Shown here: one piece after another, positions 826 through 1,096 of the stretch
How positions within the stretch are numbered: position 1 is the stretch's first letter
Layout: each line of letters begins with the position of its first letter
Source: Candidatus Woesearchaeota archaeon
GTDB lineage: Archaea; Nanobdellota; Nanobdellia; Woesearchaeales; DSVV01
NCBI GenBank assembly: GCA_016215305.1
Contig: JACRKI010000006.1
Coordinates: 1-28,909, forward strand
Reading direction: 5' to 3'
Length of the DNA stretch: 28,909 nt
Notes under the pieces: model-generated
Database searches by the model: none
What the model was told of the DNA's origin: nothing
What the model saw: the letters and a program-made list of their open reading frames with translations, nothing else
Made by a program: the position numbers and the translations under genes

Positions 826-860
826 TGGTTGTTTCAAATTGTTGTTTTTGCGTTAACGTT

Positions 861-1096
861 GAACCAGCCGCTGGCGCACGACGTGACAGGGGTTGTCCCC
901 AACCTTTAACAAAGGTTGACGAAAGGTGATGCGACAATTCTGTCGCATTTCCGTGACACTCTTGCAAAGAAAAGAGTCACGGAGTGGAGCTTCACGCTCC
1001 ACCTTGCGCGTCAACGGAGCGTAACCCGTTGCGGGATGTCATGCAGGGCAAAATTCCGCAGAATTTTGACCGTCGTGCCGCCGGCTGCGGCGGGTC
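861..1096. ncRNA. Candidate highly structured non-coding RNA, family unrecognised
   Basis: 135/236 GC (57%) in AT-rich surroundings; ends pair (GCACGACG 876-883 with CGTCGTGC 1071-1078) and enclose at least 7 hairpins; strand undetermined. Confidence 0.6.

Follow-up and report, generated by a model that had tools for sequence, protein, structure and literature searches.

The GC-rich island at positions 861-1096 of the window, the whole 28,909-nucleotide stretch of Candidatus Woesearchaeota DNA that was analysed, is one dispersed structured repeat nested inside another and not a dedicated RNA gene. An outer unit of ~105 nt forms a three-way junction, and an inner unit of ~131 nt with five hairpins (the H element) is lodged in the loop of its P2b arm. 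Both families are dispersed and multi-copy, their folds are under selection, and their presence varies between close relatives. The island thus probably combines two repeat families of Woesearchaeota-type DPANN archaea, one nested in the other, that are non-coding and structured, vary in copy number and are selfish or semi-domesticated. A single 236-nt RNA gene, as proposed in the initial annotation, is not supported, since the island is a composite of two unrelated repeat families.

The island and its gene context

The stems listed in the initial annotation were all recovered where it had placed them within 861-1096, and its GC content, given there as 57%, was measured at 57.2%; the window as a whole has 39.4% and the spacer in front of rtcA 23%. 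The + strand folds with a minimum free energy of -113.1 kcal/mol, compared with -81.9 +/- 4.3 kcal/mol for 200 dinucleotide-preserving shuffles (z = -7.2), none of which folded equally well (0/200). The fold of the - strand is nearly equal in strength (z = -6.2). The minimum free energy structure includes the closing stem, all five inner hairpins and the hairpin at 1049-1068. The composite lies between the stop codon of a gene for a CBS-domain protein and the AT-rich upstream region of rtcA, and the features of this region are as follows.

277-825, + strand: upstream gene, HTH and CBS-domain protein (Pfam HTH_3 and CBS)
839-860, + strand: remnant 3' tail of element A (TTGTTGTTTTTGCG...); window 839-899 is 83% identical to the element A/three-way-junction boundary on contig C15
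864-871, + strand: P1a 5' strand, outermost closing stem, pairs with 1087-1094 (A866.G1092 mismatch)
872-883, + strand: P1b/P1c 5' strand (UGGC and GCACGAC), pairs with 1072-1083, C1079 bulged
884-888, + strand: P2 5' strand (UGACA), pairs with 1037-1041, covarying in the family
889-895, + strand: unpaired motif GGGGUUG (family consensus GGGGWYG)
896-900, + strand: P2b 5' strand; UCCC at 896-899 pairs with GGGA at 1033-1036
901-1031, no strand assigned: inner H element, ~131 nt, in the outer P2b loop
901-917: H1, inner hairpin
929-948: H2, inner hairpin
950-983: H3, inner hairpin
984-1002: H4, inner hairpin
1004-1011: linker UUGCGCGU between H4 and H5
1012-1031: H5, near-invariant terminal hairpin CAACNG-AGCGUAAC-CNGUUG
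1032-1045, + strand: P2b and P2 3' strands and J2/3 (GGGA 1033-1036, UGUCA 1037-1041, GCA 1043-1045)
1046-1071, + strand: P3 hairpin GGGCAAAAUUC-CGCA-GAAUUUUGACC, preceded by a GUAG-like tag
1072-1094, + strand: P1c, P1b and P1a 3' strands, with bulged C1079 and a 3-nt bulge at 1084-1086
1167-2243, + strand: downstream gene rtcA, RNA 3'-terminal phosphate cyclase (Pfam RTC, 248.7 bits, and RTC_insert)

Element A is a third structured repeat module, closed by CAAAAACAACAAC / GTTGTTGTTTTTG, of which the window keeps the 3' tail only. A complete element A lies directly upstream of a three-way-junction element on contig C15 of the same genome (G000; L006:1625-1760, - strand), and further copies occur in two relatives (G001 and G002), often in the same tandem order with the three-way-junction element.

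The outer family and its three-way junction

The outer unit in the window consists of 864-899 and 1032-1094. A BLAST search with the island found a second copy on C15, in which query positions 8-45 and 178-246 are contiguous and both arms are joined without the inner ~131 nt; identity to this copy is 92% over 862-899 and 76% over 1032-1100. The ~105-nt unit occurs many times in relatives, and 18 short members align as a three-way junction made up of P1, P2 with the motif GGGGWYG, P2b, and a GUA junction with P3. Across the family, P1 has a conserved UGGC-GC / GC-C-GCCA core with a bulged C and a 3-nt bulge, P2b follows the pattern YCCC-loop-GGGR, and P3 reads GGRCAAA...UUUGNCC. In the 18-member alignment 92.8% of the cells are paired, compared with 78.6% in column shuffles and 37-57% with slid partners, and 22 pairs show changes on both sides.

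A pattern of the conserved positions gave more than 119 matches in species-representative genomes. Among the matches listed, nearly all are in metagenome-assembled genomes (MAGs) labelled Woesearchaeota, Nanoarchaeota or Nanoarchaeia, or in TPA bins labelled Methanosarcinales that have contigs in common with the window's genus; a few are chance matches or mis-binned bacterial contigs. A covariance model (R1) identified 120 copies in 100 of the pattern-matched loci, and in their consensus the unpaired GGGGWYG and GUA are kept at 91-100%. Because G.U pairs outnumber A.C combinations by 243 to 45, the outer fold belongs to one strand. R1 has no span for the 131-nt insert and mis-aligns the window copy (28.7 bits), so the membership of this copy rests on the BLAST matches of its arms and on the long homologues. 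Two outer-family members (98.6 and 79.4 bits) are found on short bacteria-binned contigs, labelled as a Thioploca MAG (L064) and as Roizmanbacteria (L074), respectively; mis-binning is likely in these cases, and transfer is possible. A viral origin was rejected, as the patterns of both the outer and the inner family are absent from IMG/VR viral contigs.

The closing stem described in the initial annotation is present, and its outermost extent is now refined to 864-871 / 1087-1094 with one A.G mismatch. Double changes are seen in eight of the ten outer-stem pairs in the family alignment, and the UGGCGC / GC-C-GCCA core with its bulged C is kept in both the 18-member and the 120-member sets. In the family as a whole, the closing stem spans 18-30 bp and falls into discrete terminal subfamilies (CCGCCGC, AACAACAA and GCAGCAACAA). 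P2 covaries across members (GGCA/UGCC, GACG/UGUC, CACC/GGUG and others). The GGGGWYG motif that follows it is 96-100% conserved among the 120 members, and alignment position G46 is 97% conserved though it lies outside the search pattern. J2/3 is GCA in the window (1043-1045), the family consensus being GUA, and in P3 the GG-R-CAAA...UUUG-N-CC positions are conserved while the upper stem covaries.

In short members, P2b is capped by a loop of 3-4 nt, as in the same-genome short copy (UCCC-UUC-GGGA), and in the window the inner element takes the place of this loop. The GGGG/CCCC hairpin previously drawn at 889-900 is a possible alternative pairing, but its GGGG is better read as part of the unpaired GGGGUUG bulge. 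Most sequences fit both arrangements, and the covariation to CUCC/GGAG in one relative (G012) favours the pairing of CCCC with GGGG in P2b, as judged from the aligned sequences. In four other members (L033, L025, L011 and L009), the position after GGGGNNG is likewise occupied by hairpin-rich inserts, which are unrelated and 45-70 nt long, indicating that the outer P2b arm is a recurrent site of insertion or expansion.

Copy number, sites and neighbours of the outer family

Searches of 61 relatives with the model found 0-41 outer copies per genome, with the highest counts at 41, 22, 22, 16, 12, 12 and 12, and none in two congeners and three single-contig genomes. The outer copies are intergenic and enriched in divergent and tandem spacers; in the tandem spacers, 23 elements have the same orientation as the genes and 19 the opposite one. 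No TATA-like motif peaks at any fixed distance upstream of the outer copies. When copies are adjacent, they are head-to-head in every case (16/16 pairs), either 1-24 nt apart or overlapping by ~21 nt, and the two partners differ in sequence.

The site on C15, between two divergent promoter regions, is filled differently in close relatives. It is empty in G003, holds ~320 nt in the window's own genome (another module and the outer element), and contains ~230 nt of different hairpin modules in G002. No target-site duplication was detected for the outer family at this one clean filled/empty site, which holds a mosaic and not a single insert. Between two species, an orthologous outer copy retains 96% identity, more than its flanking genes (89-91%) or the spacers (67-81%). 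Together with the near-invariant unpaired nucleotides across the order, this suggests function beyond selfish spread, and a host function or a dedicated binding protein for the outer family is possible.

The link to rtcA raised in the initial annotation did not hold up, given that the neighbours vary between copies and congeners with the same CBS-to-rtcA order lack the element. The genes next to other copies include those for an Obg-like GTPase, ribonucleotide reductase, eRF1-like proteins, a glycosyltransferase, a secretion ATPase and Fic, and rtcA is adjacent to none of the other copies examined. Two congeners, G003 and G004, keep the CBS-to-rtcA gene order, but their spacer is element-free and consists of other DNA containing ORFs; the arrangement of the CBS gene and rtcA is different in G001 and G002. 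In G003 the spacer is ~1 kb long and has an ORF on the opposite strand; in G004 (L163, G004:C91) it measures ~840 nt, including a scaffold gap and two small ORFs. The CBS-rtcA spacer is a variable accessory slot. With unrelated neighbours, mixed orientation, variable sites and a congener spacer without the element, the adjacency to rtcA is incidental.

Fold and preferred strand of the inner unit

The support for the inner hairpins was scored on ten full-length inner copies. Paired cells reach 84% in H1, with some compensatory changes, 90% in H2, where six of eight pairs show double changes, 93% in H4 and 92% in H5. The lower stem of H3 is supported by compensatory changes in the RNAalifold register. 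A two-state fold had been proposed on the basis of a long competing helix between 915-928 and 1000-1015. This helix can form, at a cost of 6.7 kcal/mol (-105.6 vs -112.3 kcal/mol), and it is partly conserved with weak comparative support: its UUGAC/GUCAA core is paired in 76% of cells in the ten copies, and its AAGGUG/CACCUU half in 65% with zero double changes. The hairpin fold is the better supported of the two, because the hairpins pair in 84-93% of cells and the competing helix in 65-76%. The two-state idea is reduced to a GUCAAC segment that is able to pair with either of two GUUG segments.

The variable pair of H5, read on the window's + strand at 75 listed sites, is T/A at 32, C/A at 30, C/G, G/C and T/G at 4 each, and A/A at 1. 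Standard pairs are therefore formed at 44 of 75 sites on the + strand and at 70 of 75 on the complementary strand, a count that is indicative, as copies from the same genome are not independent. From these sequences, the inner and the outer unit appear to prefer opposite strands. The apparently opposite best-folding strands of the two families further argue against a single 236-nt RNA.

The inner family and tRNA genes

A 139-nt query (898-1036) aligns over its full length, at 70-75% identity, to two copies in G002 and to homologues in G256, G083 and G100, and further full-length homologues occur in G103, G199 and G125. For the 3' third of the inner element, matches of 86-100% identity extend to many further genomes of the order. 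The exact 22-nt H5 motif is present in 38 of 401 sampled genomes of the order, with 1-15 copies each, and a reversed control of this pattern is found in 0 genomes. A metagenome scan with a pattern from the 5' part of the inner element gave no match.

When tRNA genes are predicted with introns allowed, 15 of 42 distinct inner sites fall inside a tRNA gene or no more than 150 nt from one, and 12 of these 15 are opposite in orientation to the tRNA. Exact direct repeats of 16-32 nt flank 9 of the 42 sites, compared with 4 of 210 control positions. The inserts between these repeats are 63-160 nt in length, and most of the repeats correspond to the first 15-19 nt of the adjacent tRNA. Six of the repeat-flanked loci are at tRNA genes (L193, L196, L188, L208, L216 and L226), where the repeat sometimes also includes the upstream TATA-like region; the resulting order is a tRNA 5' fragment, the 63-160-nt insert and the intact tRNA gene. 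The other three (L197, L202 and L225) are at non-tRNA loci, and the L197 repeat spans the promoter and 5' leader of an ATP synthase subunit-like gene. In another genome, a tRNA-Arg(UCG) gene (L185:1460-1596, + strand) has an intron of ~62 nt at position 37/38 that is the H4-H5 module on the opposite strand, with a canonical bulge-helix-bulge motif and outer and inner helices of 5 bp. For the window's own genome, ARAGORN run with introns allowed predicts introns in 12 of the 30 tRNA genes that it identifies.

The inner element of the window has no flanking direct repeat. A bulge-helix-bulge motif (two 3-nt bulges and a 4-bp helix) was not found at the boundaries of the insert on either strand by a test that recovers the motif in the tRNA-Arg control, and excision of the insert by this route was rejected on these grounds. 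The composite of outer and inner units is also present in another family of the order (L182 and L183). Two composites in G002 have P2, the insert and P3 in common and differ in their outer stems; modules are therefore exchanged, as they are in mosaic repeats. The inner and outer units have the same relative orientation in every long composite, and the composites could thus have arisen from one insertion that has been maintained as a unit.

Known RNA families

The initial annotation's description of the island as unrecognised agrees with Rfam 15, which returned no match in the island at gathering thresholds and none on either strand of 780-1200 at E <= 10. Archaeal RNase P RNA (RF00373) has no match at 780-1200 even at E <= 10, and archaeal SRP RNA (RF01857, with the helix 8 core) has no covariance-model match in the island. 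That the island is neither of these RNAs, as the initial annotation had stated, is confirmed by the genome's own RNase P RNA (C79:3938-4241, 120 bits) and SRP RNA (C184:4701-4969, 110 bits), both encoded on other contigs. 5S rRNA (RF00001) was rejected with no match in the window; a 5S rRNA gene was not detected in the window's genome, an 83%-complete assembly, and two congeners with 12-16 three-way-junction copies also possess an ordinary 5S gene. A Y RNA/Ro system was likewise rejected, since the genome (83% complete) has no match to the TROVE protein and Rfam gave nothing resembling a Y RNA. Searches on DPANN structured RNAs and MITEs turned up neither repeat family in the literature they covered.

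Origin and possible roles

The reading of the island as two nested repeat families would have both spread as selfish or semi-domesticated DNA, probably via folded single-stranded intermediates recognised by a putative enzyme, by analogy with REP/REPIN/BIME and MITE repeats. The closing stem of the outer unit would act like terminal inverted repeats. The composite in the window would most likely be a passenger between the CBS stop codon and the rtcA promoter region, serving at most as a generic stable hairpin cluster that protects transcript ends or insulates, with no specific link to the RNA 3'-phosphate cyclase. No mobilising enzyme for either family was identified among the Y1/RAYT candidates. 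Y1_Tnp is found in 11 of the 23 genomes that carry the element and in 10 of the 38 that lack it, a comparison limited by the incompleteness of MAGs, and it is absent from genomes with 41, 22, 16 and 12 outer copies. The outer element nearest to a Y1 gene is 4-12 kb away. A RAYT/Y1 transposase was accordingly rejected as the mobiliser, given the weak co-occurrence and the absence of a flanking arrangement. The window's genome has one IS200/IS605-type Y1 transposase gene (G000:C153:1239-1604, + strand, 104 bits), which is not close to either of its three-way-junction copies.

Three other explanations can be weighed against the same data. The three-way-junction elements may be functional RNAs, either multi-copy genes or processed pieces of longer transcripts, in which the GGGGWYG bulge and GUA junction bind a putative DPANN protein and the window copy is an expanded variant. 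The strong covariation, the near-invariant unpaired nucleotides, the strand-specific G.U bias, the orthologous copy that is better conserved than its flanking genes and the spread of the outer family over many families of one order all agree with such a role. It is nevertheless unlikely, given that copy number varies between 0 and 41 and that congeners and complete genomes are among those without any, that there is no promoter-like signal at a fixed distance, that head-to-head pairs 1-24 nt apart or overlapping by ~21 nt leave promoters no room, and that orientation is random relative to neighbouring genes and sites are filled or empty among congeners. A stand-alone ncRNA gene was rejected on the lack of a positional TATA-like peak, the unrelated neighbours and the patchy presence. 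Less probable again is a role as domesticated cis-acting hairpin clusters, namely 3'-end stabilisers, terminator aids or promoter insulators, which here would separate the CBS gene from rtcA. Such clusters would account for the intergenic position right after a stop codon and before the AT-rich region upstream of rtcA, as well as for the enrichment in divergent and tandem spacers, and have a precedent in the roles proposed for REPs (PMC3733652). However, the elements in tandem spacers run antisense to the neighbouring genes in half of the cases, the same spacer in congeners lacks the element, and a plain hairpin would suffice, yet the three-way junction and its unpaired bases are kept.

The least probable explanation, to which we attach very little weight, is a single novel RNA coupled to RtcA in repair or circularisation, in one version of which the inner part would be excised as a bulge-helix-bulge intron and circularised. 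The island adjoins rtcA, and in a tRNA-Arg gene of another genome the H4-H5 module does form a canonical bulge-helix-bulge intron, at position 37/38. Against this, the insert boundaries lack the motif on both strands of the window while the tRNA control is positive, the adjacency to rtcA is absent from the other copies examined and not conserved in congeners, and the 83%-complete genome has no Ro/TROVE protein and the island no Y-RNA-like Rfam match.

A more far-reaching form of the nested-repeat reading is offered tentatively, as something that we rather doubt. It would make the outer unit an RNA or single-stranded DNA ligand of a putative DPANN-specific protein, and a new class of structured archaeal mobile element without any known transposase. 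The inner unit would be a miniature element targeting the D-loop region of tRNA genes, whose insertion duplicates the promoter-proximal 16-32 nt and which may be converted to a bulge-helix-bulge intron. In that case, the inner unit would offer a contemporary example of the origin of archaeal tRNA introns and of tRNA 5' fragments.

Implications

GC-rich, strongly folding islands in DPANN genomes resemble new RNA genes, and at least two abundant, order-wide families of them, neither of which is in Rfam, are dispersed repeats. Such islands should therefore be masked or modelled before ncRNA discovery. The preservation of the three-way junction and its unpaired motifs in hundreds of species without a known transposase points to a putative recognition protein. 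The inner family ties the spread of a repeat to tRNA genes, both as an intron and beside duplicated tRNA 5' ends, and thus bears on a long-standing question, the origin of split tRNA genes and of tRNA introns in archaea.

Comparison with known systems

The island shares a long 5'/3' closing stem and a size of 100-300 nt with RNase P RNA, SRP RNA and the Y RNAs encoded beside bacterial rtc operons, and with the last of these also the adjacency to an rtc gene. It differs from all three in having no Rfam match at E <= 10. The inner element alone can be compared with archaeal tRNA introns and with the disruption of tRNA genes by integrating elements, as proposed in Caldiarchaeum (Sugahara et al. 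2012, PMC3293823). As in these systems, its H4-H5 module serves as a canonical intron of a tRNA-Arg gene in one case, and other inner copies have a duplicated tRNA 5' fragment on one side and an intact tRNA gene on the other, as in the Caldiarchaeum arrangement. Unlike the integrating elements, the inner insert is only 63-160 nt and encodes no recombinase, and the window copy resides in a repeat element and has neither a bulge-helix-bulge nor a direct repeat.

By analogy, the closest counterparts of the outer and inner families are the bacterial REP/BIME/REPIN and MITE repeats. REP/BIME/REPIN sequences are repetitive extragenic palindromes tagged with GTAG or CGTC (Di Nocera et al. 2013, PMC3733652; Nunvar et al. 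2010, PMC2817692), and head-to-head is the predominant arrangement of REPs (PMC3733652). The outer family is similarly extragenic and GC-rich within an AT-rich genome, has a high and variable copy number (0-41 in the 61 relatives), forms head-to-head heterodimers (all 16 pairs, with differing partners), is joined with other modules into mosaics, has a strand-specific fold, and carries a GUAG tag before the P3 hairpin and CGUC after it. The units themselves differ, as a REP is a tagged hairpin of 20-40 nt, whereas the outer unit is a ~105-nt three-way junction with a 20-30-bp closing stem and a conserved 7-nt bulge, of which only the P3 arm resembles a GTAG-tagged hairpin. The outer family also differs in its DPANN archaeal host and in lacking a flanking or well-correlated RAYT/Y1 transposase gene.

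MITEs resemble the two families in their size of 100-240 bp, non-coding content, filled and empty sites among close relatives and discrete terminal-sequence subfamilies, with the closing stem corresponding to terminal inverted repeats. For the outer family, no target-site duplication was seen at the one clean filled/empty site, which is a mosaic, and the direct repeats of the inner element are variable in length (16-32 nt). A difference is that compensatory changes preserve the internal structure of these elements, which simple MITE decay does not predict.
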